Shown: one piece after another, positions 4,908-60,258 of the stretch
Layout: each line of letters opens with the position of its first letter
How positions within the stretch are numbered: position 1 is the stretch's first letter
Origin: Candidatus Woesebacteria bacterium
Lineage (GTDB): Bacteria; Patescibacteriota; Microgenomatia; UBA8517
Assembly: GCA_013426185.1 (NCBI GenBank)
Contig: CP058602.1
Coordinates: 138,231-202,230, forward strand
Reading direction: 5' to 3'
DNA length: 64,000 bases
The notes under the pieces: model-generated
Database searches by the model: none
What the model saw: only the letters and a program-made list of their open reading frames with translations
Told to the model about the DNA's origin: nothing
Position numbers and translations under genes: made by a program

Positions 4908-5134
4908 TCCTAGCTATACATCTGACAATTTTCGCAAAGCTTGTGTGGCAGTTTGAGCTTTTTGCAATTAGGGCAAACGACCAAGTTAGGCAAAAGAATC
5001 TTGTTTGATGAACTATTTAATCTTTTGCCGCTTCGGCTTCTTGTATGTTTTCTTTTAGGTAAAGGTGTCATACAGGGTATTTTATCCCTTTTAGTGCTTC
5101 TAATGCAACTGGCAAATGAGGCAGAGGTGTCAAG

Positions 5135-7518: not shown

Positions 7519-7635
7519 TCTTTAAAATTTTAAGCCATAAACCAAAAGCGGTAGTATGGAAGAAAGAATGAGACCAAGAGTGGTGATAATAACTAGAATT
7601 ATAATGAGTTTGCGTCTTTTGTTTTTGCCCATAAT

Positions 7636-8778: not shown

Positions 8779-8814
8779 TAATTTATTTTAACTCAAATTA
8801 TCAGGAGAGTAAAT

Positions 8815-9255
8815 GAGACTAGAACAAAGAACAAAGGGGAAAATCACAAATTCCAAATCACAAGATCCAAATACTAAATTCTAATATCTAAATTCTAAGC
8901 CCTGAACCAGAATAAATTCGATTCAGGGCAAGCAAATTCCAAATCACAAATTCCAAATTACAAAAAAAAATTCCAACTTTTAACTTTTAACTATTTTTTA
9001 ATTTTGCTTCCTACTTACTACATTCTACTTTCTACTTTCCTTTCCTGCATAATACATAATACAAAATACTAGATACAATCTTCCGACCAGCTCCGACTAA
9101 ATTCCGATAGCCGACAGCTGATGGCTGATGTCCGACATCCGATAGCCGACATCCGATATCAGACAGCCGATATCTCTGGCGTCTGCTCCTTTCTACTTAC
9201 TACGTTCTACTTTCTACTTGAGTTTCTTTTAACTTTAAACTTACTCCCGTCTTGT
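8815..9255. repeat. Mosaic intergenic repeat copy R2 (reverse orientation relative to R1), with an embedded hairpin GCCCTGAACCAGAATAAATTCGATTCAGGGC at 8899-8939
   Basis: Reverse complements of the R1 modules are present, plus two direct copies of CTACTTACTAC(A/G)TTCTACTTTCTAC flanking the core. The copy sits between the divergent tyrS and PBP starts. Confidence 0.8.
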
Positions 9256-9271
9256 ATGGTAAAATATTTTA

Positions 9272-11875
9272 ATGGCAAATTGGAAGAGGGTTTTAAAGAG
9301 AAAAAAGCTTTCAAGATATATGTCAGTTGCTCCGAAGAGACTTGAGAAGAGTCAGAAGGTTCTTTTTTTTGCTAAGATTAGTTTTTTGTCTCTTTTGACT
9401 TTGTTTATTATTTTTATTGTTTCTATTCCTCTTTTTGCCTTTAATCTTCCCTCCCCTGATAAAGTTGTCCGCCGTGAGGGCTTTTCTACCAAAATTTTAG
9501 ATCGTAACGGTGAAGTTTTGTATGATATTTACGAAAATCAAAGGAGAACGCCAGTTTCTTTGAATGATATCCCTCTTTATTTGCGTCAGGCAACTGTTGC
9601 GGTTGAAGATAAGAATTTTTACAAGCATCAGGGCTTTGATGTAACAGGGTATCTGCGGGCTATTTTTAACATTGTTGTTCGTCACAAGTTGCAAGGTGGT
9701 TCTACTTTAACTCAACAGCTTGTCAAAAACACTCTCTTGACATCAGAAAGAACTCTTTTTCGCAAGATTAGGGAGTTTATTTTGGCAATTCAGATAGAGA
9801 GGAAATACACCAAGGATGAAATTTTGCAGATGTATTTAAATGAAGCCCCCTACGGCGGTACTGCTTGGGGAGTTGAGGCCGCATCCGAGCTTTACTTTGG
9901 CAAGAGCGTTAAAGATTTGAACCTAATAGAATCAGCTATTTTAGCCGGTCTTCCTCAACGTCCCTCAGTTTATTCGCCTTATTCTTCGACCCCCAAAGCT
10001 TATGTTGATAGAACGAAATCTGTTTTGCGCAGGATGAGAGAAGATGGTTATATCACAAAAGAGCAGGAAGACGAAGCTGTTAAGCAGCTTGAGAATGTTC
10101 AATTTAAGCCTAAAGAAACAGGTTTTAAGGCGCCGCATTTTGTCCAATATGTTCAAAAGGTTTTGGAAGAAAAATATAGCGAGGATGTAGTCACAAGAGG
10201 AGGGCTGAAGGTCACAACCACTCTTGATTTGAAGCTTCAGGAAAAAGCTCAGGATATTGTTAAAGAAGAAATTGCTAAGGTTGAAAAGTTAAATATCACC
10301 AATGGTGCTGCTGTTGTTTTAGATCCTGAAACAGGTGAAATTTTGGCAATGGTTGGTTCTAAGAATTTTTCAGACCCCAATTATGATGGCCAAGTAAATG
10401 TTACATTGTCTTTGCGTCAACCAGGTTCTGCCATAAAGCCAATAACTTATGCTGCTGCTTTCAAAAAGGGTTATACCCCTTCTACTCTTTTGATGGACGT
10501 TCCAACCGAGTTTGGAACAGGCCAAGGTGGAAAGCCTTATAAACCGGTCAATTATGATGGAAAATATCGAGGGCCGGTTCAGGTGAGATATGCTTTGGGG
10601 AATTCTCTCAATATTCCAGCAGTTAAGATGCTAGCTTTGGTAGGAATAGAAAACACTCTTCGGCTTGCTTATGACCTTGGCATTAATTCACTTGAGCCAA
10701 CGCGCGATACTTTAAGCAAAGTTGGACTTTCTTTAACTCTAGGTGGTGGCGAAGTCAGGCTTTTGGAGTTAACAAATGCTTACTGTGCTTTTGCCAATCA
10801 GGGATATCGAGTTGATCCTGTAGCTATTTTGAAAGTAGAAGATCTAAATGGTAAGGTTTTGGAGGAAGTTAAGCCCAAAAAGTCAAAGTCTGTCATCTCG
10901 CCTCAGGTGGCATATCTTATTGCCAACATTCTTTCTGATAATGATGCAAGGAAAGATGTTTTTGGTCCAAATTCTCTTTTGAATATTCCAGGAAGAACTG
11001 TAATGGTTAAAACTGGGACAACCAATGATAAAAGAGATAACTGGGCGATTGGTGGGAACACTCAAGTAATGGTTGGTGTTTGGGTTGGCAATAATGATAA
11101 TTCAGAAATGAAGCAAGTTGCATCAGGTGTTTCGGGTGCTTCTCCTATCTGGCGTCGAATTTTGCTTGAGGCGCTTTCTGGTAAACCCAATATTGGTTTT
11201 GAAAGACCAGATGGTATTGAAACTGTTGATGTTGATATTGTTTCAGGGTATCGCTCTCATGATGGTTTTCCTTCAAGGCCTGAGATTTTTATTAAGGGCA
11301 CGGAACCTGGTGATGATCCTGTTCATGTTAAGCTCAAGGTCTGCAAAAATGATGGGAAGATAGCAACACCAGCCGATATTGCAAGTGGTAATTATGAAGA
11401 GAAAGAATATTTTATCTTTAAGGAAGAGGACCCAACTTCAGGTGGTGGTCCTAATAAATGGCAAGAAGGAATTTTAAATTGGCTTTCAACTCAAAGTGAT
11501 CCTCGTTACCATCCACCAACGGAATATTGTGGAGCAACTAATCCCCTAAGTATCGATTTTGATACTCCTCGCGATAAAGATTCCAATATTTCTTCCAACT
11601 TTGAGGTGAGGTTAAAAGCTGATTCTACTTCTGATATTAAAGAAGTGTCTCTTTATATTGATGGTAGCCTTTTTCGCACTTTTACCAAGCCGCCTTATGC
11701 CGCGAATTTAAGTCTTGATAAGGGTGTTCATAGGCTTAAGGCAAGAGCAAAAGATCAAGATGGACATCAGTCAGAAAGAGAAATTACTATTGGAGTAGGG
11801 GTAGCTTGGGATTATGTCTCTCCCACTCCCCCACCAACCCTAATTGTTTCCCCATCACCCACACTTTCGCCTTGA
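9272..11875 (+). CDS. Class A penicillin-binding protein (glycosyltransferase GT51 plus transpeptidase) with a C-terminal Ig-like extension and a Pro-rich tail
   Basis: GT51 motif ATVAVEDKNFYKHQGFD; SxxK as GSAIKP; KTGTT motif. N-terminal TM anchor. Confidence 0.8.
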   Translation: MANWKRVLKRKKLSRYMSVAPKRLEKSQKVLFFAKISFLSLLTLFIIFIVSIPLFAFNLPSPDKVVRREGFSTKILDRNGEVLYDIYENQRRTPVSLNDIPLYLRQATVAVEDKNFYKHQGFDVTGYLRAIFNIVVRHKLQGGSTLTQQLVKNTLLTSERTLFRKIREFILAIQIERKYTKDEILQMYLNEAPYGGTAWGVEAASELYFGKSVKDLNLIESAILAGLPQRPSVYSPYSSTPKAYVDRTKSVLRRMREDGYITKEQEDEAVKQLENVQFKPKETGFKAPHFVQYVQKVLEEKYSEDVVTRGGLKVTTTLDLKLQEKAQDIVKEEIAKVEKLNITNGAAVVLDPETGEILAMVGSKNFSDPNYDGQVNVTLSLRQPGSAIKPITYAAAFKKGYTPSTLLMDVPTEFGTGQGGKPYKPVNYDGKYRGPVQVRYALGNSLNIPAVKMLALVGIENTLRLAYDLGINSLEPTRDTLSKVGLSLTLGGGEVRLLELTNAYCAFANQGYRVDPVAILKVEDLNGKVLEEVKPKKSKSVISPQVAYLIANILSDNDARKDVFGPNSLLNIPGRTVMVKTGTTNDKRDNWAIGGNTQVMVGVWVGNNDNSEMKQVASGVSGASPIWRRILLEALSGKPNIGFERPDGIETVDVDIVSGYRSHDGFPSRPEIFIKGTEPGDDPVHVKLKVCKNDGKIATPADIASGNYEEKEYFIFKEEDPTSGGGPNKWQEGILNWLSTQSDPRYHPPTEYCGATNPLSIDFDTPRDKDSNISSNFEVRLKADSTSDIKEVSLYIDGSLFRTFTKPPYAANLSLDKGVHRLKARAKDQDGHQSEREITIGVGVAWDYVSPTPPPTLIVSPSPTLSP

Positions 11876-12333: not shown

Positions 12334-14283
12334 TCACTTAACCGATCCCGCGTATTTTTTCTTAATTTCCTCGAGTATTTTTTCCCGCAGACTTGCAATT
12401 TCGGCGTCGTTTAGTGTTTTTTTGTTGCTTTGATAGGTGATTCTGAAGGTAAATGCATCTTGATAAATATCTTTTAGCTCTACATTTCTTATTAAATCGC
12501 TTGTTTTTCTGATTGATTCAATGACTTCACCAATTTTAGTTTTAGGAGGAAAAACGAAGGTTAGATCTTCAATCTGGGGTGGATAACTACTTACAGGAAC
12601 AAAAGTTTTAATCTTTGAACTATTTTTTAAAGCCTCAAGGTCAAGCTCAAATGCCCAGAGGATTTCTTTAACGGCGAAATTTTCTCTTACTTGTGGATTT
12701 ATTTCTCCAAAATAGCCGATATTTGACTCTTTTACTTTTATTGTCCCACTTTTTGCTGGATGAAAGATTGGTTCTTCTACTTCAAAGATAATTTTATAAT
12801 TTTCTATTCCCAGTCTTTCCAAGACTAAATCGATCGCCCCTTTAAACTCTCTAAATTCTACCCCCTTCCCTATAGCTGAAACTTTGTATTTTTCTTCAGG
12901 AAAAACTTTATCTATCTCAAAAAGTTTTACGGCTTTATCGGTATTTAATTTAGCGGCAAGAATAAGGCTTGGAATAAGAGATGACCTTAAATATTGATAA
13001 TCTAAACTAACGGGATTTTTAATTTTTATGTGTTTTTCAGGATCAGAAAGAGAATCTTTAATTATTTTTTCTGAGATAAGAGAGTAATTCATAGTTTCGC
13101 TGTAGCCTGATGCGATCATTATTTCTCTTAGTCTTTTTTCGATTTTGTTGTCTTTGAAGTAAGCTATTTTTTCTTCTTTTACTTTTCCTTCAGGTAGAGT
13201 TAAGGGAAAGTTATTGTAGCCGTAAATTCTGGCGACTTCTTCTATTAAATCCTCCTCGATTTTAAGATCGGATCTTTTAGTTGGTATAATGCAGGTTATT
13301 TTTTCGCCTTTAGCTTTAGGGTTTAAATTTAAGCTTGAAAAGATTTTTACCACTTTATCCTTTTTGATTTCTATTCCCAGTACTTCTTTTAATTTCTTTA
13401 GGTTAAGGTCAAGAGAATAAGGTTTGAATTCTTTTTGCTTTAAATCTATTAAATCTGAGGCCACTTCCCCACCGGCTATTTCGAGTATTAAATTGGCTGC
13501 TCTTTTGATGGCTTTAACAGTACCCCCTTTATCAGGGCCTCGTTCATAAATTGCTGAAGCGTCGCTTCTTAATCCTAGAGCAATTGAGGTTCTTCTTATT
13601 AATGCAGGATTGTTGATCGTTGAATGCAGGAGTATATTTTTAGTGTTTGCCTTAATTCCTGAGTTTAACCCCCCCTTAATGCCAGCCAAGTCTATAATTC
13701 TTTCTTTGTCTTTGATGATAATAGCGTCTTTTGGTAGTTTATAGGAAAGTTCATCAACGCTTGTAAATTCTTCCCCGCCTTGAGAAAGCATGACCGTCAT
13801 CTCGTGACCTTTAATTTCGTCATAGTCAAAAGCATGCATTGGCATTCCCATTTCAAACATCACAAAGTTGGTTATGTCAACAACATTGTTGATCGGTCTT
13901 AAGCCAACAGAAAGAATCCTTTTTTGAAGCCACTCTGGGGATGGTTTAATCGCTATTCCTGAGATGATAATTGCACTCCATCTCTCAATTGCCTGAAAAT
14001 TGTTCTTTAATTTTATTTCAAGGGTTTTTTTGGATTTTGCTAACTCTTTTATTTGTGGTTCTTTAACTTTATCGCCTTGGATTGCTGCTATTTCATAAGC
14101 TACACCAAGGATACTCATCCAGTCAGGCCGGTTGGCTGTGACCTCAATGTCTAAGACTTCCTCTCCGTTTATTTTTTCTAGCTTCTCTGATGTCAGGCCT
14201 ATTTCAGTCAAGCGCCACATTAAGTCTTTTAAGGGCAACTTTATTTCGATGTAGTCTTTGAGCCAAGAGACTGGTACTAACAT
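12334..14283 (-). CDS. pheT: Phenylalanyl-tRNA synthetase beta subunit (short form)
   Basis: N-terminus MLVPVSWLKDYIEI, then B3/4 and B5 regions. It is adjacent to pheS. Confidence 0.8.
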   Translation of the reverse strand: MLVPVSWLKDYIEIKLPLKDLMWRLTEIGLTSEKLEKINGEEVLDIEVTANRPDWMSILGVAYEIAAIQGDKVKEPQIKELAKSKKTLEIKLKNNFQAIERWSAIIISGIAIKPSPEWLQKRILSVGLRPINNVVDITNFVMFEMGMPMHAFDYDEIKGHEMTVMLSQGGEEFTSVDELSYKLPKDAIIIKDKERIIDLAGIKGGLNSGIKANTKNILLHSTINNPALIRRTSIALGLRSDASAIYERGPDKGGTVKAIKRAANLILEIAGGEVASDLIDLKQKEFKPYSLDLNLKKLKEVLGIEIKKDKVVKIFSSLNLNPKAKGEKITCIIPTKRSDLKIEEDLIEEVARIYGYNNFPLTLPEGKVKEEKIAYFKDNKIEKRLREIMIASGYSETMNYSLISEKIIKDSLSDPEKHIKIKNPVSLDYQYLRSSLIPSLILAAKLNTDKAVKLFEIDKVFPEEKYKVSAIGKGVEFREFKGAIDLVLERLGIENYKIIFEVEEPIFHPAKSGTIKVKESNIGYFGEINPQVRENFAVKEILWAFELDLEALKNSSKIKTFVPVSSYPPQIEDLTFVFPPKTKIGEVIESIRKTSDLIRNVELKDIYQDAFTFRITYQSNKKTLNDAEIASLREKILEEIKKKYAGSVK

Positions 14284-16535: not shown

Positions 16536-17345
16536 TTCCGTACACCCCCGGGGTGTACTGAGGCGACACCTCGGTATTATTTTTATTCAATAGCTAGAGC
16601 CTTGATTTTTGCCAGTTTTCTTTGGTAATCAACTTGATTGAAAGTAAATTCCACCATTTTTTCTATTGATGGAAAGAATTTGAGAAGAAATTCTTTGTCG
16701 ATAATCTTTAGATCTCTTGTTCCTAGATAATCAGGAAAAGAGGTCCCTGGATAGGTTTTTAGGTCTTCTGGATTTTTAATCAAAAATGAGGTTAAGGGAT
16801 TAAGATGTATGTAACGAGCTACATGTACAAATTGTTCGTCATTTTCTATTCTCACCGCCTTAAAACCGGATTGGAATAGAGCTCCTGGTCTTTTGTTCCT
16901 TGTATTGTAGAATTTAGCAATACTGTTTTGGAAGTTGCCGATAAAAGATGAGATTCCTTTTTCTTTTATTTCTTTAGCTAAAAAATGGAAATGGTTAGGC
17001 ATTAAAGAAAAGGTAAAAATACTGATTCTTTTAGTATTATTTTCGATTGTATTATCCCAGAATAAGTTTTTATCCTCCGAGCTAAGCCTTGCGTAATGGG
17101 AGTATCTTATATCTAGGTTATCAAAAGCGTAGAATTTTATAGTTTCGATGGCTCTGTCGAGTAGTCTTTTTGATACAAAGATTTTTTCAGAGCCGACTGT
17201 TTTGTTGAATATATGATAAATTTCACCTTTGACGATTGGTTCTTTTCTAAGGGCCATTATATAAAATTTACATTAACAATTACCGAGGTGTCAAGCTAGT
17301 ACACCCCCGGGGTGTGATTGGGGTGTGATTGGGGTGTGATTGCAA
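16536..17345 (-). mobile_element. REP/RAYT-like unit: one HuH transposase gene bracketed by about 37-bp imperfect terminal inverted repeats
   Basis: Left end is GTACACCCCCGGGGTGTACTGAGGCGACACCTCGGTA (16536-16572). Right end is its near reverse complement, TACCGAGGTGTCAAGCTAGTACACCCCCGGGGTGTGA (17281-17317). The unit lies in the thrS-infC intergenic space. Confidence 0.6.
16583..17257 (-). CDS. HuH Y1 transposase, IS200-like / REP-associated tyrosine transposase (RAYT)-like
   Basis: HuH motif in MPNHFHFLAKE and a catalytic Tyr motif ARYIHLNPL (the YIxxNP motif of RAYTs). The gene is flanked by inverted palindromic repeats. Confidence 0.65.
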   Translation of the reverse strand: MALRKEPIVKGEIYHIFNKTVGSEKIFVSKRLLDRAIETIKFYAFDNLDIRYSHYARLSSEDKNLFWDNTIENNTKRISIFTFSLMPNHFHFLAKEIKEKGISSFIGNFQNSIAKFYNTRNKRPGALFQSGFKAVRIENDEQFVHVARYIHLNPLTSFLIKNPEDLKTYPGTSFPDYLGTRDLKIIDKEFLLKFFPSIEKMVEFTFNQVDYQRKLAKIKALAIE

Positions 17346-19278: not shown

Positions 19279-19335
19279 AATCCCGATCTGGCAAGCTAAA
19301 CCACTTCCGAAGTGGGCTGAGTTGCCATATCGGGA
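19279..19335. repeat. Direct repeat E1: a remnant of the copZ 3' end (…NPDLAS*) plus downstream imperfect palindrome. E2 is its partner.
   Basis: ATCCCGATCTGGCAAGCTAAACCACTTCCGAAGTGGGCTGAGTTGCCATATCGGGAT. Inner palindrome CCACTTCCGAAGTGG; outer arms ATCCCGAT/ATCGGGAT. Confidence 0.7.
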
Positions 19336-19347
19336 TATTTAAGTCCA

Positions 19348-19569
19348 CTACCTTTTCAAGTTAAAAATTATAGAAAGAATAATTGTTAAGATGATGCTTA
19401 TGATTATTGAAGTTGTAATGGGTGCGTAGAAGATAAAATTTTCTTTTTTAATGAATATGTCACCAGGTAATTTCCCAAAATATGGTATTTTGCTAGAAAA
19501 TAGAATAAAAATACCGAAGGCGACTACTATTAGACCTAAAAGGATAATTAATTTACCCAAATCTTGCAT
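19348..19569 (-). CDS. DUF2905 family small membrane protein
   Basis: GKLPGDI motif flanked by two TM helices. It is co-oriented immediately downstream of copA. Confidence 0.5.
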   Translation of the reverse strand: MQDLGKLIILLGLIVVAFGIFILFSSKIPYFGKLPGDIFIKKENFIFYAPITTSIIISIILTIILSIIFNLKR

Positions 19570-19593: not shown

Positions 19594-21861
19594 TCAATGG
19601 GAATCAAATTGTATTCGCTCTCTTTTTAATCGCAGTGAATTGCCTACGACAGAAATTGAACTTGCAGCCATCGCAAAGGCGGCCAAAGCAGGGTTAAGAA
19701 GAAGGTGAAAAGAAGGATAAAGGATTCCCATTGCAACAGGAATTAGAGAAACATTATAACCAAATGCCCAAAAGAGATTTTGTTTTATAACAGAAAGAGT
19801 TTTTCGACTTAGATTGTAGGCCGTCAAGATAGATTTAATATCTTTGTTGAGTAAGGTGATTCCTGCTGATTCAATTGCAACATCAGTTCCTGATCCAATC
19901 GCAATTCCGATATCTGCTGTTGCTAAAGAAGGAGCATCATTTACTCCATCTCCGACAAAGGCCACCACTTGTGTTTTTTCTTTTTTCAGCTCTTTTACTT
20001 TGTTTGCTTTTTCTTCCGGCAAAACATCAGCTAGTACATTCTCTATGCCCGATAACTTTGCTATTGCCTTTGCGGTTCTTTCGTTGTCGCCTGTTATCAT
20101 CCAAATCTCAATACCCTCTCTCTTCAAGTTTTGCACAGTTTCTTTTACCCCACCTTTAAGAGTGTCGGAAATTGTAATTATACCCAGAAGATTTTTGCTT
20201 TGGGATAGAAACACCACGGTTTTTCCTTCGTATTCCAACTTTTTGATACTTTCTTCCCATTTATCGAGATTGACCCTATTTATTCCCATTAAAGCTCTAT
20301 TACCCAAAAAATATATCTTTCCTTCTATTTTTCCTTCAATTCCCTTCCCGGCGTGAGAGGTAAAGTTTTTTACTGCGGCAAGTTTTAGTCTATTACTTTT
20401 TGCCTTTTTGAGTATTGCATCAGCAAGCGAATGTTCGGATCCTTTTTCAAGAGAGGCTGCGATTTTAAGTACTTCCTCCTTGCTTATTTTTTGATTCTTG
20501 TTTTCAATGATATCAACTACTTTGGGTCTGCCTTGAGTTAGGGTGCCGGTTTTATCAAAAATAAAAATCTTTGCTTTGCTTAAAATCTCAAGGCTCTGAG
20601 CGTCTTTAATTAAAATGCCTGATTCTGCTCCCTTGCCGACACCTACCATAATAGCGGTTGGTGTGGCAAGACCCATCGCGCAAGGGCAAGCGATGATAAG
20701 AACGGCTATCATGTTACTCAAGGCTAAGTTGAAATTGCCAAAGTCGTACCACACAACAAAGGTTAAAACCGCAAGGACAAGGACAATGGGCACAAAATAT
20801 GAAGACACGATATCTGCAATTCTTTGGATGGGCGCTCTTGTTGCCTGAGCCTCTGAAACAAGTTTTATGATGTTTGAAAGCATTGTTTCTTTACCAACTT
20901 TCTCTGCTTTAAAGATAAAGGTCCCTGTTTTATTGATGGTTCCGCCAATTACTTTGTCTTTTACTTTTTTGTCAACAGGTATTGACTCTCCTGTTATCAT
21001 TGATTCATCAACACTGCTTGCTCCTTCAACAATCTCACCGTCTACAGGGATTTTTTCACCTGGCCTGACGCGGATAAAATCGCCAACTTTTACGTTGTCA
21101 ATTGAAATGTCAAACTCCTTGAAATTACCTCTTTTGATATCTGATATGGTTAGCTTGTCCCCCGTTCTTACAGTTTGCAACACTCTTGCAGTTTTTGCCT
21201 TGAGTCCTAGTAATTTTTTAATAGCATCGGAAGTATGAGCTTTAGCTTTTGCCTCAAGAAGTCGGCCCAACAGGATAAGAGCAATGATAACAGTTGCTGT
21301 GTCAAAGTATAAATGTCCCCCTTTAAAAGTTGAAATTAAAGAATAACCCCAGGCACTAGATGTGCCAATTGCAATTAAGGTATCCATGCTTGCAGTTCTA
21401 TTTTTGAGTCCTGACAATGTAGCCTGATAAAAACTCTTTCCTGCCCAGAACTGTACAGGGGTAGAAAGTAGTAAAAGAGTAAAAGGATTACTCAAAAATT
21501 GAGGAACAAAATTGAACCATTCTGGAAAACTCCCAAGTACTACAAAAATTGATACAACTATGGAGAAAATAGTCTTTATTTTGAGATTTTCAAGCTCCCT
21601 TTTCTTTTCTTCTTCTTTAATCTTGTTGATATCTTTTTCTTCGTCTGTTTTGATTATGGCTTTGTACCCTGCTTCTTCTACAGCGTTTGCTAAATCTTGA
21701 TCTTTAACATTCAGACTGCATTCAACCACTGCCTCCTCGCTTCCGTAGTTCACAGAAGCGGTTTTGACACCTTCTATTTTTTGCAATTTTCTTTCAATCA
21801 GCTTGGCGCAGGAGGCACAGTGCATTCCAATAATTGGGAAAGAAGTCCTTTTTATTTGCAT
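19594..21861 (-). CDS. copA: Copper-translocating P1B-type ATPase
   Basis: N-terminal HMA domain ([14 protein letters not shown]), a CPC metal-binding TM motif ([11 protein letters not shown]), DKTGTLT phosphorylation site and GDGVNDAP. Confidence 0.85.
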
Positions 21862-25669: not shown

Positions 25670-25920
25670 GGGAATAAGCTTTACTTGAAATTTAGAACGC
25701 AAAATTGAAAGTTAAAAGTTAAAACTTTCTAATTAGATTATAGATTATAGAATTTTGATTTATACTTACTACATTCTACATTCTACTTTCTACTTTTATT
25801 TCCTGAATAATATAAAATACTAAATACTAACTTTTGACCAGCTTTGACTAACTCCGCTGCAGTCGGAGACTAACTTCGACTAATATCTGATAGCTGATGT
25901 CTGATATCCGATATCCGAGG
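25670..25920. repeat. Mosaic intergenic repeat copy R3 (R2 orientation; modules E-D-C'-B)
   Basis: Contains TACTTACTACATTCTACATTCTACTTTCTAC, a degenerate core, and ATCTGATAGCTGATGTCTGATATCCGATATCCGA. It lies upstream of tig. Confidence 0.7.
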
Positions 25921-26079
25921 CCCTATCCCTTATGCTGAGTTTTAAAGGTTGAAGGGTTAAATTTGATGCCAAATGAAGATTTGGGACTAAAAGTTTTAGC
26001 CTTGAAAAAATCTGGAGTCCTATATTTTGGCCCTGCTTGATTTGGTCCTTCCTTTTTCTTGATAAAGCTTTTTGTCATA

Positions 26080-26438: not shown

Positions 26439-27445
26439 TTAGTCTTTTGTCAAATTTTTAACAAAGAATTCTAAAGTATTCTCTGCCGCATCATCCCATT
26501 TTGGCCTTAAATTATGATTAGCACCGGCGTAAGTCTGATATTCCACTTCTTTACCTAATTTTTTAAGCTTCTGAAACATATCCTTTGACCACTTTTCAGG
26601 AACAACGTCATCACTGGCCCCCTGAATTATGAGAAGAGGTGAATTTATTCTATTGAAGTAGTTGGTTATTGAATATTTATCAACGTCATACAGTTCTTCA
26701 AATTTTGCTAGCTCTTTTCTTATAAATTTGCCTTTATCTTCTGCCTCGTCAGTATAATACAAAATTGAGTATGGAAATGGTTTTGAAACAGGAGCCCAAA
26801 GGACAGTAGGTATATTTTTCTCTGATACTTCAAGAGTATAAAGTGCTATCTGCCCTCCGTTTGAATGTCCCCAGATAAAAATATTTTTCCTTCCCATTTT
26901 TCGATATCCTCGACTGATTTGATTAAAGAAAGTATGGTAGTATAAGTTTGAAAACGGGATTCAAAAATATTTTCTGCTTCCCTGTCGGAATCTGCATACC
27001 CTAAAAAATCAGGAGCGATTGTTATAAAGCCTTTTTCGGCCAAAAAATAGCTCATATTTTTAGAGCCGGTTCCTGTTTTATAAATTTTTGGGTCAACATA
27101 ACCTCTAATCATAATGACCAGAGGAAAAGTTGATTTTCCTTTTGGTATGTTTATTAAACCTGATGTCTTTTTTATCGTCTTTTGGTCAAGGTTTGGGTTA
27201 AATTGAAATTCAAAAATGTAGGAGTCAAAAGTTTCTTTTTCTTCAATTTTTTCTTTTATGATTATTTTTCCTTCAGGTATATTGGTTTTGGCCAAGTTTT
27301 CAATAGAATATCTTTCAAGAGGTCTTTCTATTTCTCCACTTTTATTGATTAAATCAACCTTTTTATCGCTTTTATTTTTGTTTAGAAAATACAAGACGGA
27401 TATAAAAAGAAAGGCTATTGAGGCTATAAATAAAACATTTCTCAT
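26439..27445 (-). pseudogene. Alpha/beta-hydrolase (dienelactone hydrolase / S9-like) split by a +1 frameshift in an A5/T5 homopolymer near 26875-26890
   Basis: Two overlapping minus-strand ORFs (26846-27445 and 26439-26897) join into one hydrolase with a signal peptide, nucleophile elbow GHSNGG and a C-terminal Asp/His region. The frames differ by 1 nt within gaaaaatattttta. Confidence 0.5.
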
Positions 27446-28839
27446 TTGTTTAAATATTGAGCGATAGTAAGAAAAGAAAATATTCCATAGAAAACAAAAG
27501 CGGAAAGAAGAAATAATTTTCGGAGTATACTTGGTCTTAGCGGTTTTTCAAGCAGTGAATTGTTTAGCCAAAGTATAAGTATCGTATATACAAACATTGT
27601 AAAAGCGTTTAAAACAGCTCCTAAAACAAGAAGAGTCAAAGGCTCTGTAATTCCAAACATAAATATAATTATCCCAAGAGTAATCTGTGACCAAAGGAAG
27701 AAGTAATAGAACTTAGGCAAGTTTTCAATCCTGAATCTGTTTTGGTTTAAAAGTATTAAATTCTCACTCATTATTCTTGATGTGGCGTCAATTACTGAAA
27801 ACTGTGTAAAGAAGAGTGTTAAACTGCAAATTCCAAGAAAGATACTACCTATTAGTGGAGCTGTTTTTAAGCCTATGTTTTTAGCTTCGGTTAAGATAAA
27901 GCCTATGCCACTTTCTGTCTCTTGGCCATAAACAGTTAGGTAGGAAAGAAATGAAAGAATTATCATTGTGAAAGCGCCGGTTACTAGGAAGACTAAAGAG
28001 TGCTCTATATTTATAGCTCTCCACCAATTTTTAAACCTTTCCAAATTTTTTTGATTTAAGGTAAAAGAGTAACCCTCAAGGTTTATTCTTTCTGCCTCGC
28101 CCGTCAAGATACTTGTTATTCTTCCTGAATATTTGCCCATTCCATAGCCCTTTTCTTTGACATAAAAGCTTTGAGCCAAATTAAGGTTGCCACCCGCGCC
28201 GGCATAAGCTACAGCTCCCAAAAAAGCTGCTATTGAGATGCCTTGAGGCAAAAACCAGAAATTATCACCTTTGCCCACAAGTCCCTCAAAAAGTGGTGGC
28301 AGATTTTCTTTTTTTGCAATTAGTGTTGTTATCAAAAGAATTAAGGGAATGCTAATACTGATCACTATCTTGAGCAATTTTTCTTGAGTTTTGTATATCA
28401 CAGGTCCTAAAGTAAAAATTAGGCCGATGATAATAAGGAAGATTATCGGAATAGCTTTTGTGTAATTTATTCCCAATAAATTTGAAAATATTTTTGCTGA
28501 TGAAGCGATAATTCCCGGCCACATCCAAGGGATTAGGGTTGAAACTATGAACCAAAAAGGGATTATTTTACCCATCTTTCTTGTAAGACCAACAAAAACA
28601 CTTTCCCCTCTTAAAAGCGTGTATCTTTCTATTTCCATATTGATGAAGAATTGGAAGGTAATGCCCAAGACTGCTGCCCAGATAATGCCCATTCCGTATC
28701 TTGATGCAAGGTATGGCCAGAGAATGATTTCTCCGCTTCCAAGTCCTAGTCCAAGTAAAATAAAACTTGGCCCCAGAAGTTTTTTTAAAGGAAGAGGTTT
28801 GGGTAAATTCTTTTTCTTTAGAGTATTTTTTGCTTCCAC
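27442..28839 (-). CDS. Polytopic transporter, possibly a distant Nramp/APC-superfamily member
   Basis: 10 to 12 TM helices. An N-terminal GPSFILLGLGLGSGEII segment loosely resembles the Nramp TM1 motif GPGFLxxxAYxDPGN. Confidence 0.3.
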   Translation of the reverse strand: MEAKNTLKKKNLPKPLPLKKLLGPSFILLGLGLGSGEIILWPYLASRYGMGIIWAAVLGITFQFFINMEIERYTLLRGESVFVGLTRKMGKIIPFWFIVSTLIPWMWPGIIASSAKIFSNLLGINYTKAIPIIFLIIIGLIFTLGPVIYKTQEKLLKIVISISIPLILLITTLIAKKENLPPLFEGLVGKGDNFWFLPQGISIAAFLGAVAYAGAGGNLNLAQSFYVKEKGYGMGKYSGRITSILTGEAERINLEGYSFTLNQKNLERFKNWWRAINIEHSLVFLVTGAFTMIILSFLSYLTVYGQETESGIGFILTEAKNIGLKTAPLIGSIFLGICSLTLFFTQFSVIDATSRIMSENLILLNQNRFRIENLPKFYYFFLWSQITLGIIIFMFGITEPLTLLVLGAVLNAFTMFVYTILILWLNNSLLEKPLRPSILRKLFLLSAFVFYGIFSFLTIAQYLNK

Positions 28840-32489: not shown

Positions 32490-32633
32490 CAACCCCGCCA
32501 AACTTCAGCTATTGGATGTCAGCTATCAGCCGTCAGCTGTCGGAGTTGTTTGCTATCTTAATTCATAAATCTTAAATCCTAAATCAAAATTCTATAATCT
32601 AATTTTTGACTTTTGAGTCTTGTGTTAATCTTG
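32490..32633. repeat. Mosaic intergenic repeat copy R4 (partial: modules B and E), abutting tRNA-Lys
   Basis: Contains CAGCTATTGGATGTCAGCTATCAGCCGTCAGCTGTCGGAG followed by AAATCTTAAATCCTAAATCAAAATTCTATAATCTAATTTTTGACTTTTGAG. Confidence 0.65.
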
Positions 32634-32874: not shown

Positions 32875-33040
32875 TTTTGATAGGTAAAAGGTAAAAGGCA
32901 AGAGAATTTAAGTTCGAATTGACTGAAGTTGTTCAAAATTTTTCGAAGTTAATTTAAGTTATTAGCCAAATCAGGTTGCGGATCCAGTAAATCGTATATT
33001 GACTATATGTATTATGCAGAAAGGCATTAGAAAATAGTAG
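32875..33040. repeat. Mosaic intergenic repeat copy R5 (partial: module A and core C), on the other side of the tRNA-Lys/tRNA-Arg pair
   Basis: Contains GGTAAAAGGTAAAAGGCAAGAG ... TATATGTATTATGCAGAAAGGC. Confidence 0.6.
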
Positions 33041-40910: not shown

Positions 40911-40944
40911 GTATAATAAATATTCTTTGGTATAATTAGACCAA

Positions 40945-41015
40945 GCGGGCATAGTTGAAAGGCTCAACAACTCCCTTCCAAGGAGTAGATCGGAGTTCGA
41001 TTCTCCGTGCCCGCT
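40945..41015 (+). tRNA. tRNA-Gly (TCC)
   Basis: Acceptor GCGGGCA/TGCCCGC; anticodon loop CTTCCAA; T-loop TTCGATT. Confidence 0.8.
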
Positions 41016-41449
41016 CATAAGTCAAATCCAGCGAAGGCAAAATTTTACATATTGGGATCTACTTTCTTGTGTACCCTTTTCCTCCCATACTTCTACTTCT
41101 TCTTTCGCAAGGATCTCCATAAAATTGCCAGAGGAGTGCTAAAGCAAAATCTCCACCTTGAAAACCTTGAAGCCTAATTGTTCCGTATCTTTTTAGGGTT
41201 TTTCGTAAGTTGGAAATTCTACTCGTTCTTTACCAAATCATGCCTAATCATATATAGGCCTGATGAAGGATTCCTTTAAATTTGAAGACCAATTTAAACA
41301 TTTGTTTCTAGGTAATCAGAAAGATTAGGCCATTTTTGCTTACCAGGGAAAAGCTTGTGAATTTCATTGATAGTAACTGGTTGCAGTTCTCTTTCACTTT
41401 GCCCTTCCCCAAACATAAAAATATTATAACAGTACAATGTATCTCTAAA

Positions 41450-41650
41450 CTATTTTGATAGTTTTAATTCTTTTATATCAACTGCTACTGATTTGCCGCA
41501 TTTTGTACAGATAGCACTTACAAGAACTCCATTTTGATTTATTTCAGTTACTTTCCCTCTTGAACCAGCTGCTGGATACAGATGCTCTAGGATTGGCACA
41601 ATGTCTCCTATCTTAAATTCTTTTGTTCTCTTAAGATTTCTTTCTGTCAC
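41450..41650 (-). CDS. Hypothetical 66-aa protein
   Basis: ORF only. CTKCGK plus an upstream hydrophobic beta-like segment. No recognisable family. Confidence 0.2.
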   Translation of the reverse strand: MTERNLKRTKEFKIGDIVPILEHLYPAAGSRGKVTEINQNGVLVSAICTKCGKSVAVDIKELKLSK

Positions 41651-41694
41651 AAGATGAACTGGAAGTGCAGGCTTTATTCTTTACAAACTTTATG

Positions 41695-41768
41695 TCGGGG
41701 TGGACGGACTCGAACCGTCGACCTCACGCTCCCAAAGCGCGCACTCTAGCCAACTGAGCTACACCCCG
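41695..41768 (-). tRNA. tRNA-Pro (TGG)
   Basis: Acceptor CGGGGTG/CACCCCG; anticodon loop TTTGGGA; T-loop TTCGAGT. Confidence 0.85.
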
Positions 41769-41861
41769 TTCTTCAGAGAAGAACTACTTTCTCCAGAGAA
41801 GAACTACTCTCTCCAGAGGAGAATGATTTTCTCCAAGAGATAATTTCTCTCCTCAGCGATT

Positions 41862-42125
41862 TTATTTTAATTGATTTTGGTATTTTAATATCAATCTTCG
41901 AAACTTATAACCAAACCCTGATTTCAAAAACTTTTCTCTTTTCTCAGCGCACAGCTTACAACAGAACCTTTCGTCATATATCAACTTCCAAGGTATATAA
42001 GCTTTTGTATATCGAGATAGCCCTTTGTTGTGTTCTTTTATCCTTACCTCGAGATCCTTAATCGTCAACCCGACATATGTTTTGCCCTTTTTTCTCAAGC
42101 TCTCGAGTATGTAAACACTATACAT
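41862..42125 (-). CDS. GIY-YIG nuclease family small protein (second copy)
   Basis: N-terminus MYSVYILESLRKKGKTYVGLTIKDLEVRIKEHN contains the GIY..YVG motifs. Confidence 0.55.
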   Translation of the reverse strand: MYSVYILESLRKKGKTYVGLTIKDLEVRIKEHNKGLSRYTKAYIPWKLIYDERFCCKLCAEKREKFLKSGFGYKFRRLILKYQNQLK

Positions 42126-42172
42126 TCGACAATTTCAATTCTTGCCTAGCAGAAAATTCTGCTCTGCAGAAG

Positions 42173-42256
42173 TGCCGAGAGAGGGACTCGAACCCTCACG
42201 GTCCTTCGGACCACAGGATTTTAAGTCCTGCGTGTATACCATTCCACCATCTCGGC
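42173..42256 (-). tRNA. tRNA-Leu (TAA), type II
   Basis: Acceptor GCCGAGA/TCTCGGC; anticodon loop CTTAAAA; variable arm TGGTCCGAAGGACCGTG; T-loop TTCGAGT. Confidence 0.85.
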
Positions 42257-42349
42257 CTGAAATCTAACTTATTTTAAAACAGCTTTATTCCTGCTTCGCA
42301 GGAAAGGATTTGTCGCTTCGCTCTTGCTCACTTTCACTTACGTTCGCAC

Positions 42350-42449
42350 AAGTCCTGCGTGTATACCATTCCACCATCTCGGCCTGAAATCTAACTTATT
42401 TTAAAACAGCTTTATTCCTGCTTCGCAGGAAAGGATTTGTCGCTTCGCT
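42350..42449 (-). repeat. Tandem direct duplication (about 100 bp, near-identical) of the tRNA-Leu(TAA) 5' 34 nt plus 66 bp of upstream sequence. The original is at 42223-42322.
   Basis: Two copies of CAAGTCCTGCGTGTATACCATTCCACCATCTCGGCCTGAAATCTAACTTATTTTAAAACAGCTTTATTCCTGCTTCGCAGGAAAGGATTTGTCGCTTCGCT separated by 27 bp. Confidence 0.8.
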
Positions 42450-42571
42450 TATATTTACTTTAATTACTTTTACCTAATTTGGCACTCAACTTTTTCAACA
42501 CAACTTTTTCCAAACAACTAGCACAACTATTTTATCAAAATATGATTACAACTGCCAACTTTTGGAGAAAT

Positions 42572-57570: not shown

Positions 57571-59877
57571 TTAAACTTCTTTCTTAGAAAGTTCCTTTTC
57601 TGCTTGATAAATATTCTCGCGAGTACGAGCTATTGCATCTGGATTAACAGAGATACTGGTTATTCCCCACTTAACTAGGTTAAAAGCATAATCATCATAA
57701 ATAGATGGCGCCTGCCCACAAATTGATGTAGTGACTCCATGCTTATTACAAGTTTTTATTGTTTTTCTTATTGCCCAAAGAACAGCAGGCGACCTTTCAT
57801 CAAAGGCAGAGGCTACTTCGGCATTATCGCGGTCGGTTCCGGTCAAAAGCATGGTTAAATCATTAGAACCTATAGAAACTCCGTCGATTCCTACCTTAAT
57901 AAAATCTTCAAGTTGAATTACGTTGACAGGCAGTTCCACCATCATCCAAAACTTAAAGCTAGAAAAATCAAATAACCCTTCCGAGGCAACTATCTTCCTG
58001 ACTTTTGCAAGCTCTAAAGGAGAACGTACAAAAGGAATCATAATCCTTAAGTTATTGTAGCTCGAGAGTACTTTTTTGAGAGCCTTTAACTCCAATGTGA
58101 ACACTTCCTGATTTAGAATATAACGCAAAGCACCTCTAAAACCAAGAAGCGGATTTGCCTCTTGGGGCTCCCAGTGAGCCCCGCCTTCAAGCACACGGTA
58201 CTCATTAGTTTTGAAATCGGTAGTTCGGTAAACAACTGGTCTTGGATAAAATGATTTACAAAAAGTCTCAACACCTTTAGCCAAATCATCTATATATTTG
58301 ATTTGCTTCTTATTCTTAATAGCCTCTTTAGGATGAATCTTCATGTTGGCCATCATAAATTCAGCCCTTAAAAGTCCAACCCCATCAACATCAAGTTTTG
58401 CCACCTTCTTTGCCATCTCAGGCTCAGCTAAGTTTACATAAAGCTTGGTTGCTGTCTTTCGGGGACGATAAACTTCTTTAAGACTTTCTTTCTTCAATTG
58501 TTTATTCTTAGTACCCTTGTAAATTACACCATTCTCACCATCTACAGTAACTACTAATCCTTCTTTCAATATTTTTGTTGCGTTTTTAGTACCAACTACG
58601 CAAGGGACACCCAACTCCCGAGAGACTATGGCAGCATGAGAAGTCATACCGCCTTCATCGGTAATGATTGCTGATGCCTTTTTCATTGCTGGCACAAAAT
58701 CAGGCGAGGTCATTGTTGATACCAAAACATCACCCTCCTTTACTTTACTAATTTCCTTAGCGCTTTTAACCAGCTTAACTTCCCCACTACCTACACCAGG
58801 ACTTGCTGGTTTGCCTGAAAGGAGAACGGGCAAATCTGAAAATTCACCATCTTTCTGGGAAAACTTGGCTTCGGAACCTAAAGTAGTGATTGGTCTTGTT
58901 TGAACAATATAAAGGTTATTTTTCTCCTTAGCCCACTCTATATCTTGAGGAAAGAAATAGTGCTCCTGTAGTTTTTGAGCAATTTTTGCCAAGAATTTAA
59001 TCTCAGAATCATTTAACTTTGGCGAGTTTCGCTTATTTTTTGGCACACTAAATTCTTTAGTTTCCTTTCCTCTTCTAACAAGTTCTCTATCCTGCTCTGA
59101 AATTTCTTTTGAAAGAATATCAAAAGTGTCTTTTTGAACCACATAACGGTCTGGAATAACTGAACCTTGAACTATCATCTCACCCAATCCCCAAACAGCC
59201 TCAATAACAATCCTGTCCTTTTCTTTAGTTACAGGATCTACTGTAAAAATTACTCCCGAAGCCTCAGATTGCACCATCTTTTGGACAATCACAGCAATTT
59301 TAACTTTCTCATGAGGAATTTTGTTTTGAACCCGGTAGAAAATAGATCTAGCAGTAAAAAGCGAGGCCCAACATTCTTTTAATGCCTGAAGCAAATTATT
59401 CTCTCCTTGCACGTTTAAAATTGTTGCCTGTTGGCCGGCAAAAGAAGTGGAAGGCATATCTTCGGCTGTAGCTGATGACCTTACTGCAACTAAAGCTTTC
59501 TTAAGTATTCCTGAAAGCTTTGCATAACCTCTGACTACTTCGCGAATAACCTCTTGAGGTATATCAGAACCTAATATCATTTTTTGTATCGTGGCTGAAG
59601 CTTCTTGAAGCTGGGCTGGATCTGAAACATCAAGTGATGACAAAAGCGAATAGATTTTACTCTCAAGATTATTCTCTTTCAGAAAAAGATCATAAGAATT
59701 AGCAGTTATAGCAAAACCGGGTGGCACAGGCATCCCTATTTTTGTCATCTCCCCCAAGTTTGCTCCCTTGCCTCCAACCAAATTTACATCGCTTTTGTCC
59801 AAATCCTTGAAGTAGATAACCAACTTTTGGGCAGTCATAACAATAGTCATTATAAAGAGACAAAAGATTAGTATCAA
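57571..59877 (-). CDS. PEP-utilizing dikinase (phosphoenolpyruvate synthase or pyruvate,phosphate dikinase family)
   Basis: N-terminal ATP-grasp nucleotide domain (GGKGANLGEM), phospho-His swivel domain (GGMTSHAAIVSRELGVPCVVG) and a C-terminal PEP-utilizing TIM barrel. Confidence 0.75.
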   Translation of the reverse strand: MILIFCLFIMTIVMTAQKLVIYFKDLDKSDVNLVGGKGANLGEMTKIGMPVPPGFAITANSYDLFLKENNLESKIYSLLSSLDVSDPAQLQEASATIQKMILGSDIPQEVIREVVRGYAKLSGILKKALVAVRSSATAEDMPSTSFAGQQATILNVQGENNLLQALKECWASLFTARSIFYRVQNKIPHEKVKIAVIVQKMVQSEASGVIFTVDPVTKEKDRIVIEAVWGLGEMIVQGSVIPDRYVVQKDTFDILSKEISEQDRELVRRGKETKEFSVPKNKRNSPKLNDSEIKFLAKIAQKLQEHYFFPQDIEWAKEKNNLYIVQTRPITTLGSEAKFSQKDGEFSDLPVLLSGKPASPGVGSGEVKLVKSAKEISKVKEGDVLVSTMTSPDFVPAMKKASAIITDEGGMTSHAAIVSRELGVPCVVGTKNATKILKEGLVVTVDGENGVIYKGTKNKQLKKESLKEVYRPRKTATKLYVNLAEPEMAKKVAKLDVDGVGLLRAEFMMANMKIHPKEAIKNKKQIKYIDDLAKGVETFCKSFYPRPVVYRTTDFKTNEYRVLEGGAHWEPQEANPLLGFRGALRYILNQEVFTLELKALKKVLSSYNNLRIMIPFVRSPLELAKVRKIVASEGLFDFSSFKFWMMVELPVNVIQLEDFIKVGIDGVSIGSNDLTMLLTGTDRDNAEVASAFDERSPAVLWAIRKTIKTCNKHGVTTSICGQAPSIYDDYAFNLVKWGITSISVNPDAIARTRENIYQAEKELSKKEV

Positions 59878-60258
59878 GTGTCAAGTATCAAGTATAGGTA
59901 AAAGGCTAGAGGTAAAAGGTAAAAGAAACACAAGTAGAAAGTAGAACGTAGTAAGTAGAAAGCAAAAGATTGTATCTAGTATTTTGTATTATGTATTATG
60001 CAGGAAATACAAGTAGGAAGTAGAATGTAGTAAGTAGAAAGCAAAATTCTATAATCTATAATCCAAAATCTATAATCTAATCATAAAGTTTTGACTTTTG
60101 AGTTTTAAGTTTTAATTTAATTTGTGATTTGAAGAATTGGATAATTGTAGAATTGTTTAGAATTTAGAATTTGTGATTTGGAATTTTATTCTCTAATCTC
60201 TAATTTGTATTCTGTAATCTAATTTTTGACTTTTGAGTTTTAATTTTTGAGTTATTAA
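59878..60258. repeat. Mosaic intergenic repeat copy R6 (most complete: A-D'-C-D'-E, with duplicated E sub-blocks)
   Basis: Contains GGTAAAAGGCTAGAGGTAAAAGGTAAAAG; GTAGAAAGTAGAACGTAGTAAGTAGAAAG on both sides of GATTGTATCTAGTATTTTGTATTATGTATTATGCAGGA; and two copies of TTTTGACTTTTGAGTTTTAA. Confidence 0.8.

Follow-up and report, generated by a model that had tools for sequence, protein, structure and literature searches.

Background

Tandem repeats of heptanucleotides are the most common long simple-sequence repeats (LSSRs) of prokaryotes, and polymerase slippage has been proposed as their origin (Mrazek 2007, as cited in PMC4679880 and PMC4692102). The short tandemly repeated repetitive sequences (STRRs) of cyanobacteria are a described heptanucleotide case (PMC2670836); others are GGGAATC in Xanthomonas and GGGGAYT in Nostoc, both of which vary between close strains (PMC4692102), and the TAACTGA heptamers of Beggiatoaceae, cyanobacteria and Bacteroidetes (PMC4679880). 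Here we describe a family of intergenic repeats composed of heptamers in a 64,000-nt stretch of contig CP058602.1 from a Candidatus Woesebacteria bacterium (assembly GCA_013426185.1, positions 138,231 to 202,230 of the forward strand; this entire stretch is called the window, and positions are counted from its first letter). The host belongs to the Candidate Phyla Radiation (CPR), whose genomes are regarded as streamlined and repeat-poor, and our literature search retrieved no paper on heptamer repeats in CPR bacteria and none citing the accessions of the related sequences discussed below.

A first-pass annotation of the window, made from its sequence alone, had noted six intergenic regions (R1 to R6) that share a set of short modules. 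With STRRs and heptanucleotide LSSRs, these regions have in common tandem 7-nt units in short arrays of ~3-12 copies, dozens per genome and almost all intergenic, which are lineage-restricted, vary in length and sequence between close strains and are suspected to arise by slippage. The family in the window differs in that about 10 mostly AT-rich heptads are joined in a recurring order into mosaics of 150-900 nt, which act as a single dispersed repeat built on a conserved core of ~110 nt; in its host, a CPR bacterium with a genome of ~0.8 Mb; and in lacking both G-quadruplex potential and a preference for the site just upstream of start codons.

The first-pass annotation compared the family with the bacterial interspersed mosaic elements (BIMEs), which, like the repetitive extragenic palindromic sequences (REPs) and REP doublets forming hairpins (REPINs), are found in enterobacteria and pseudomonads (PMC3116915), and with the BOX elements of Streptococcus pneumoniae. 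All of these are intergenic, multi-copy and found in both orientations with a variable number of modules, break assemblies and serve as recombination substrates, and the lineage of the window also possesses a gene similar to REP-associated tyrosine transposases (RAYTs) along with REP-like hairpins. In contrast to those elements, the modules in the window are heptamer arrays rather than palindromic units of 35-60 nt, and most have no hairpin potential.

Six mosaics of heptamer arrays

The copies are mosaics of about 10 types of heptanucleotide arrays in a loosely conserved order around a ~110-nt core that consists of a linker and the modules denoted C and D. The sharing of modules among the regions is stronger than had been claimed. 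The 38-bp module C, described as near-identical in R1, R2 and R6, is present in the window in three copies with no mismatches (5301-5338 and 59968-60005 on the plus strand, 9043-9080 on the minus strand), whereas the number of exact copies expected by chance is 0 (100 dinucleotide-preserving shuffles). A 25-mer of module D occurs six times at three or fewer mismatches, twice each in R2, R3 (where the two copies overlap) and R6, and never in the shuffles; D, reported as a pair in R2 and R6, is also present in R3. The motif of module B, (TCRGNNN)x4 with at most one mismatch, yields 26 matches, all in R1-R4, versus 0.02 expected. Self-alignment, the check that the first-pass annotation had suggested, gave long inter-region matches at 82-91% identity, beyond chance: 8993-9082 with 59966-60055 (90 nt, 91%), 25734-25829 with 59977-60072 (96 nt, 82%) and 5196-5287 with 9084-9175 (92 nt, 83%).

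All modules are tandem arrays with a period of 7, as determined with Tandem Repeats Finder. The units are AGTATCA in module K, AGGTAAA in A, RGHYRTC in B, TTGTATT/TAGTATT in C, AGTAGAA in D, TCTATAA in T, TCTCTAA in S, TTTTGAC in F, GTGATTT/GGAATTT in G and TTTAGAA in E; the earlier descriptions of A as an 8-mer array, (GGTAAAAG)n, and of B as iteron-like repeats of ~11 nt misread the period. In a sliding self-match scan of the 64 kb, lag 7 and its multiples 14 and 21 were prominent, and all lag-7 regions lie within the six listed gaps; other scoring lags (11, 20) were few and all outside the mosaic regions. The lag-7 arrays account for 1,009 of the 9,239 non-coding bases of the window (~11%), and the six mosaics together span ~1.7 kb (part coordinates summed).

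Brought to a common orientation (R1 and R6 plus, R2 and R3 minus), the modules are colinear and follow the order K-A-(D)-B-linker-C-D-T/S-F-E/G. R6, the copy flagged in the first-pass annotation (59868-60258, plus strand), is located between the 5' end of a phosphoenolpyruvate (PEP)-utilising enzyme gene and the 3' end of pgi and consists of K (59870-59895), A (59896-59925), D (59932-59962), C (59968-60005), a second D (60011-60041), T (60048-60079), F (60086-60115), G/E (60129-60186), S (60190-60220) and another F (60224-60250). R1 (5127-5510, plus strand), between the 3' end of recG and the 5' end of rpmF, starts with a K-like unit (5127-5137), followed by A (5138-5176), B (5180-5274), the linker (~5268-5300), C (5301-5338), an inverted C, denoted C' (5353-5387), and E/G arrays of TTTAGAA and TTGTAAT (~5400-5510).

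R2 (8815-9255, minus strand) separates the divergent tyrS and PBP1A genes. It comprises E/G arrays (8821-8898), the hairpin P (8899-8929), which makes R2 the only mosaic of the window with a hairpin module, a G array (8933-8972), an AACTTTT array (8975-8992), D (9007-9039), C (9043-9080), the linker (9081-9103), B (9097-9175) and a second D (9189-9219). R3 (25670-25925, minus strand), which separates a holin-like gene (3' end) from tig (5' end), contains an AAAGTTA array (25696-25724), T with the unit TAGATTA (25734-25751), D (25759-25796), a degenerate C (25797-25833), the linker (25834-25879) and B (25880-25925). R4 (32490-32633, plus strand) is flanked on one side by a 217-aa gene (5' end) and on the other by a tRNA-Lys gene (3' end) and carries B (32505-32543), inverted-E/T arrays (32555-32599) and F with the units TTTTGAC/G (32601-32620). 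R5 (32875-33040, plus strand), also on the first-pass list, is a marginal copy, with three A units (array 32880-32905), a 16-nt fragment of C (33009-33024) and otherwise unique sequence. The inter-region matches and the module strings bear out a modular, dispersed family with copies in both orientations and in differing module combinations.

The family in related metagenome sequences

A search of related genomes and metagenomes, also proposed at first pass, extends the family well beyond the window: 85 metagenome stretches contain a match to a 26-mer of module D, many of them on the same contig (at least 9 on single contigs of 130-283 kb). In the D-bearing loci, where ORFs (open reading frames; at least 100 aa) were called crudely, there are 380 lag-7 arrays, with 96.5% of the array bases outside ORFs, and the arrays make up 22.5% of the non-coding DNA of these D-selected loci. 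The 7-nt unit, the 380 dispersed intergenic arrays and the polymorphism in unit number described below are all features of heptanucleotide LSSRs and STRRs. The module strings across the related loci follow a loose grammar with many combinations, and additional modules appear in other strains, in particular a hairpin, H (TCCGTGTACTAGTACACGGA). The linker-C-D core (~110 nt) is kept in ~55 distinct copies, C being followed by either D or the inverted C'; its C-D part is ~90% conserved among these copies, on contigs of 31-41% GC.

Several other classes of elements were weighed and discarded. One is that of DNA-uptake sequences (USS/DUS), many of which reside inside genes, unlike the motifs here, nearly all of which are intergenic (96.5% of array bases outside ORFs). 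Miniature inverted-repeat transposable elements (MITEs, such as Correia, RUP and Nezha) do not fit either: no terminal inverted repeats are present in the window copies, and the ends differ between copies and between strains. A phage or mobile-element origin was rejected, as C and D have no match in 2.9 million viral contigs. Among 185,579 species genomes (596 Gb), a 20-mer of C has a single match, which is near the chance level by our own estimate. This match (L009 in our numbering of related loci, 522-2129; Candidatus Moranbacteria metagenome-assembled genome, PCRW01000058) is inside a murB-like ORF that also contains TTTTGAC x4 and is directly downstream of a RAYT-like ORF 25% identical to that of the window; it may be a chance hit or a distant relative of the repeat system.

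Variation between strains

Orthologous loci, identified with tblastn, show that the unique DNA flanking the mosaics is nearly identical between strains and that the mosaics themselves differ: orthologous gaps carry different module sets beside proteins that are 92-100% identical. The R2 gap is 493 nt long in the window, 395 nt in L001, with neighboring proteins 99-100% identical, and 402 nt in L026. The L001 copy lacks one D and most of B and has one additional TTAAAAG unit and a 10-nt insert in the linker; L026 has other modules in place of B-C-D and an additional 14 nt. R1 has five architectures in five assemblies (the window, L001, L026, L043 and L051), even though the neighboring proteins are 94-100% identical. 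Exchange between copies is apparent as well, given that R1 of L001 matches R2 of the window over 350 nt at 91% identity and the orthologous R1 over only 223 nt at 78%. In alignments with at least 92% identity, the distinct indels inside arrays are predominantly of 7 nt (37), with 7 of 6 nt, 4 of 8 nt and 4 of 14 nt; outside the arrays, a single 7-nt indel was found.

Larger rearrangements also map to the mosaics. In two loci from different samples, L035 and L064, the gap between pgi and the PEP-utilising enzyme gene (ppdk) measures 2.0 kb and contains two direct mosaics around a 1.2-kb GC-rich gene; R6 of the window corresponds to the head of the first and the tail of the second of these mosaics, a 1.6-kb indel. 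The GC-rich region in L035 contains a 166-aa ORF (7621-8121; also in L064) that encodes a protein with a signal peptide and a Pro/Thr-rich repeat, gives no Pfam match and is not found in the window. Synteny with L031 breaks inside R4. In L043, the nusB-proximal side of R1 is fused to the tyrS-proximal side of R2, which possibly reflects an inversion between the inverted copies R1 and R2; this junction is on one contig that ends 17 nt into tyrS and could be a chimera. Of the four functions that the first-pass annotation had proposed (regulation, protein-binding iterons, a structured RNA and a recombination substrate), only the last gains backing, from the differing orthologous gaps, the exchange between copies and the break of synteny. 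A minor observation on the comparison with L031 is that a 465-aa ORF of the window (27442-28839, minus strand; no Pfam match) has no reported counterpart in this otherwise syntenic locus and may be strain-specific.

The tyrS-recG segment was recovered at 99-100% identity in seven independent short-read assemblies. Each of them ends within R2 (8833-8907), and three extend to R1 and terminate there (5433-5494). These ends confirm the outer ends of the two mosaics and, at the same time, indicate that the mosaics defeat assemblers. The breaks, along with architectures that are found on one contig only, such as that of L043, might be taken to mean that the mosaics are collapsed or chimeric repeats produced during assembly. 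We give this explanation hardly any credence given that L035 and L064 share the same complex 2-kb architecture although they derive from different samples, that the outer ends of R1 and R2 were recovered in seven runs at 99-100% identity and that the modules turn up in 85 stretches drawn from many metagenomes.

With moderate confidence, we conclude that the mosaics are probably a clade-specific dispersed intergenic repeat that serves as tolerated filler and as a recombination substrate and is driven by slippage and ectopic recombination. Under this scenario, replication slippage in a 7-nt register would give rise to the arrays, and ectopic homologous recombination or gene conversion would spread and reshuffle the copies. 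The host would tolerate the mosaics, which would be used in recombination rather than act as locus-specific regulators, with occasional co-option as in the case of the PEP-utilising enzyme gene, where a K unit appears to supply the -35 box.

Several considerations weigh against this scenario. It gives no reason for the 7-nt unit, nor for the likeness of the C-D core on contigs of 31-41% GC, the conservation of which needs active spread or constraint. Homologous recombination by itself could carry a copy into a new gap only if seed homology existed there; no signature of transposition was found, although a RAYT-like gene is present. Some strain architectures rest on single metagenome contigs assembled through repeats, and part of the differences between strains could be assembly errors inside the repeats. 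Furthermore, the counts are biased, as the related loci were all chosen for their possession of D and include several redundant ones. Finally, module B shows position-specific conservation: among 128 linker-anchored units (46 distinct heptamers), positions G2, T6 and C7 are conserved at 89-98% and positions 1, 3, 4 and 5 at 45-62% (chi-square p = 3.6e-36), with 5.7% variation at the 'invariant' positions. This pattern could reflect selection for a TCRG motif every 7 bp, that is, protein binding, but could equally result from unequal exchange of founder units that differed at those four positions; because shuffling of founder units gives the same pattern, the conservation is indecisive.

Whatever their origin, the mosaics mark the sites at which strains differ in gene order, gene content and gap length, explain the fragmentation of short-read metagenome-assembled genomes in this lineage and provide ready markers for strain typing in the manner of multiple-locus variable-number tandem repeat analysis (MLVA) of an uncultivated organism. 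The preference of bacterial LSSRs for 7 nt also becomes testable, given close array-rich and array-free genomes with a minimal set of replication and repair genes.

Phylogenetic range

Among the loci with homologs of tyrosyl-tRNA synthetase (TyrRS), gene order is conserved as thrS-infC-rpmI-rplT-pheST-x-PBP1A and, divergently, tyrS-recG-(rpmF)-nusB. In the window, the recG-nusB gap is 601 nt and the PBP1A-tyrS gap 493 nt, and both contain heptamer arrays. At 75-76% TyrRS identity (L095 and L096), the recG-nusB gaps of 651 and 542 nt contain arrays of partly different heptads (A units, CTAAATx, ATTGTTA, AATCGAT), and of the PBP1A-tyrS gaps, that of 278 nt contains some arrays and that of 83 nt none. 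At 62-63% (L097, CP055308.1, and L098), the gaps shrink to 204 and 200 nt and to 104 and 48 nt, respectively, and essentially no heptamer arrays are present in 21 kb. The mosaics are thus a recent expansion restricted to one clade. That arrays are missing from the same gaps at 62-63% TyrRS identity indicates that the neighboring genes do not need them, and the best reading is that the mosaics are dispensable for the flanking genes.

Short heptamer arrays of similar units (TTGTATC x5, ATTTGRA x5, TGTAATT x3) were observed at low density in two of the three other Microgenomates loci examined, one of which is labelled Daviesbacteria. In that locus (L100), arrays are at 12401-12444, 19319-19366 and 19618-19660, and in L101 at 1501-1551; the units are TTCRAAG x5, ATTTGRA x5, TTCCCCT x4 and TTGTATC x5, and some are inside called genes. 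These arrays point tentatively to a broader propensity for slippage in 7-nt steps.

Orientation, RNA folding and protein binding

The first-pass annotation had placed every copy in a promoter-proximal region of a major operon and regarded this as a sign of function. All six copies in the window do adjoin at least one gene start; this is not a general feature of the family. The orientation of 53 mosaics in the related loci relative to the flanking genes is random, with 14 (+,+), 14 (-,-), 11 divergent, 11 convergent and 3 mixed cases, so that 11 of the 53 lie between convergent 3' ends, and the same gene pairs at 62-63% TyrRS identity are separated by 48-204 nt without arrays. The promoter-proximal pattern is a product of the gene geometry of the window.

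A structured RNA had been suggested too. Comparison of the window with Rfam detected tRNAs only, and module B and the D-C-D segment fold like shuffled sequences (z from -0.05 to -1.85). The C/C' hairpin of R1 is stable (z = -5.9), and the C/C' palindrome recurs in eight distinct copies, among which none of the 27 pairs shows a compensatory change. Stability without compensatory change points to an inverted duplication rather than a selected structure. It is highly improbable that the mosaics are transcribed and act as RNA, whether as elements of 5'-untranslated regions, as small RNAs or as sponges for RNA-binding proteins. The strong fold of C/C' and its recurrence would suit such a role, as would the position of all six window copies next to gene starts and the richness of module B in GGA motifs, and a precedent has been proposed for the TAACTGA heptamer repeats of Beggiatoaceae (PMC4679880). 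Apart from the unremarkable folding of B and D-C-D, the lack of an Rfam family and the absence of compensatory pairs, however, the random orientation and the frequent location between convergent genes speak against it, and recognizable promoters between mosaic and gene place the mosaic upstream of the transcription start.

A DNA-level role is suggested by analogy with ribbon-helix-helix (RHH) repressors. RHH proteins polymerise on contiguous boxes, as exemplified by omega of pSM19035, which binds WATCACW heptads (7-bp boxes), and MetJ, which binds 8-bp metboxes (AGACGTCT). The heptad arrays might likewise be platforms for the cooperative binding of one or more small DNA-binding proteins, the mosaic being an orientation-independent nucleoprotein element upstream of leaderless-type promoters that could help to organise the nucleoid, insulate promoters or serve as a partition-like site. 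We find this doubtful, if worth entertaining. Contiguous 7-8-bp boxes with a conserved core are seen in module B, the arrays of which consist of 8-12 contiguous heptads with an invariant TCRG and GAYRTC pseudo-palindromes. As in the omega and MetJ operators, there are 7-10 units per array, direct or inverted, upstream of promoters, and the units AATCACA and AGACGTC resemble the omega and MetJ boxes; AATCACA, which we take to fit the omega heptad WATCACW, alternates with AATTCCA at 8841-8964. The lack of orientation bias fits a role of the DNA itself, and mosaics lie just upstream of the -35 regions of recognizable promoters.

Unlike the RHH operator arrays, the family in the window has many unit types and is hypervariable, dispensable and also found between convergent genes (11 of 53 mosaics), and no cognate protein has been identified, Pfam scans of the window ORFs of at least 90 aa having detected no RHH family. 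About 10 heptad types would require many proteins in a genome of ~0.8 Mb, the array content is completely different between near-identical strains, and arrays are missing from the same gaps in sister lineages; moreover, a neutral explanation is available for the pattern of module B.

A more elaborate version of this idea, also by analogy and in our view unlikely, is that the heptads would form a cis-acting code, with each array type a platform to which a small dimeric DNA-binding protein would bind cooperatively, mosaics working in either orientation as nucleoprotein elements upstream of leaderless-type promoters, and turnover by slippage retuning housekeeping operons or chromosome organisation of a minimal-genome episymbiont in a contingency-style manner. 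In the promoters of the Haemophilus hmw genes, 7-bp repeats confer phase variation of the contingency-locus type, and the mosaics resemble such simple-sequence repeats in their slippage-made polymorphism of unit number near promoters. In contrast to contingency loci, the neighbors of the mosaics are housekeeping genes, and in the one readable promoter, that of the PEP-utilising enzyme gene, the array is upstream of the -35 box rather than in the spacer or the ORF: the change in K units lies upstream of the -35 of TTGATA-17-TATAAT, in keeping with the 96.5% of array bases outside ORFs. If the heptads do bind proteins, they would add a novel type of regulatory or architectural element to those of CPR bacteria.

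A RAYT-like transposase and REP-like hairpins

The window encodes a RAYT-like Y1 (IS200-type) transposase (16583-17257, minus strand; the whole unit spans 16542-17342) between thrS and infC. The protein scores 32 bits with Pfam Y1_Tnp (cutoff 23) and matches the NCBIfam profile of REP-associated tyrosine transposases with E = 4.7e-14 and a score of 52.5, which does not reach the curated cutoff of 80; it retains intact HUH and Tyr motifs, and a sequence search of the PDB gave no match. Inverted 35-nt repeats (16542-16576 and 17281-17315), each with the palindrome ACACCCCCGGGGTGT, and (GGGGTGTGATT)x3 flank the gene, which is not at this position in four relatives. At most, this protein is a possible trans-acting factor for the repeat system.

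Were the mosaics BIME- or REPIN-like elements that RAYT-type Y1 transposases spread or process, recognition and cleavage would take place at the GTAG-rich module D and at hairpin H next to it, with the heptamer arrays of secondary importance. This is quite unlikely, although more than the presence of an intact RAYT-like gene, bracketed by inverted palindromes and missing from this position in relatives, is in its favor. Paralogous RAYT genes flanked by REP hairpins occur on the mosaic-bearing contigs L015 and L045; the 15 copies of H are all inside mosaics, downstream of D where the junction could be read; and D carries four GTAG motifs, GTAG being the tetranucleotide conserved in the REPs of E. 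coli. On the other side, the palindrome that flanks the RAYT-like gene of the window was not found elsewhere in the window or in ~650 kb of related loci and hence is in no mosaic, and H occurs only in mosaics of other strains and in none of the six in the window, of which R2 alone has any hairpin module. Of the 19 copies of the classical REPs of L015 and L045, 6 are near an array, a Daviesbacteria locus (L099) has a RAYT gene and no arrays, the NCBIfam score is under the curated cutoff and no fixed element ends were seen.

The comparison with BOX and BIME elements is fair as a modular analogy and fails on the palindromic unit that defines those elements: given the shuffle-like folding of B and D-C-D, only optional modules (H, P and C/C') are palindromic. 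The boxA-boxB(n)-boxC organization of BOX (59/45/50 nt, with a stable RNA) has no equivalent in the 7-nt unit and the lack of excess folding, in a comparison made by description. As regards the classical REP-like hairpins themselves, GGACAGGGTCCGACCCTGTCC and TTGACAAGGTCCGTCCTTGTCAA, they flank the paralogous RAYT genes (L015, 5040-5865; L045, 128-966), with one copy inside each RAYT ORF and 19 copies in the related loci.

Neighboring genes and promoters

Pfam searches confirmed the neighbors of R1 as recG and then rpmF-nusB-rnc, those of R2 as tyrS divergent from PBP1A, those of R3 as the holin-like gene and then tig, and those of R6 as pgi and then the PEP-utilising enzyme gene, eno and gpmI; R4 and R5 are in a neighborhood of the 217-aa gene, tRNA-Lys and tRNA-Arg genes and then a Ddl-like gene. 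R1 had been placed directly upstream of nusB; in fact, the unannotated rpmF gene (bL32, 53 aa; 4910-5071, minus strand; Pfam Ribosomal_L32p, E = 2.7e-14) intervenes and adjoins the A end of R1, and the seemingly unique ~215 nt upstream of nusB are rpmF coding sequence. An ORF on the opposite strand (4941-5312, plus; called as 108 aa in L001, a JGI contig) runs from unique DNA into modules A and B; it lies opposite rpmF and its repeat part varies between strains, so it is probably spurious.

Recognizable promoters sit between the mosaic and its gene. The PEP-utilising enzyme gene has a sigma-70-like promoter (59849-59877, minus strand; TTGATA-17-TATAAT, 11 of 12 matches), the -35 hexamer of which adjoins and overlaps the K array (59870-59895) at its proximal end, K reading TTGAYAC in reverse complement; the window differs from L035 by one K unit, upstream of this -35. 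The tyrS promoter, TTTACT-17-TAAAAT, ends 7 nt before the ATG, and TAAAAT boxes read from the sequence directly precede the start codons of rpmF and PBP1A. In and around the mosaics, sites resembling promoters or terminators are not clearly more frequent than in shuffles, and R1, R3 and R6 contain no consensus promoter or terminator sites besides the ppdk promoter; single cases of a signal within a module are the ppdk -35 in K and a TATAAT inside T. The -10 boxes (TAAAAT/TATAAT) end 7-10 nt before the starts of tyrS (8785-8813), rpmF (~5080-5090), PBP1A (9258-9271) and the PEP-utilising enzyme gene (59849-59877), a spacing which suggests that the mRNAs of this organism are leaderless or have very short leaders.

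Other repeats

Two further repeats in the window are located in a 1.66-kb ORF-free stretch (40911-42571): a 20-nt repeat (x3.5) at 41769-41852, adjoining a tRNA-Pro gene, and a 127-nt tandem duplication (x1.9, 95%) at 42223-42461, overlapping the 5' part of a tRNA-Leu(taa) gene. Among the related loci, L020 contains GC-rich hairpins, CCACGCGCTTTAGCGCGTGG and CCACGGCCTTTAGGCCGTGG (9933-10010; at 9933 and 9984), with 13 copies in the related loci, which may constitute another repeat family or array.

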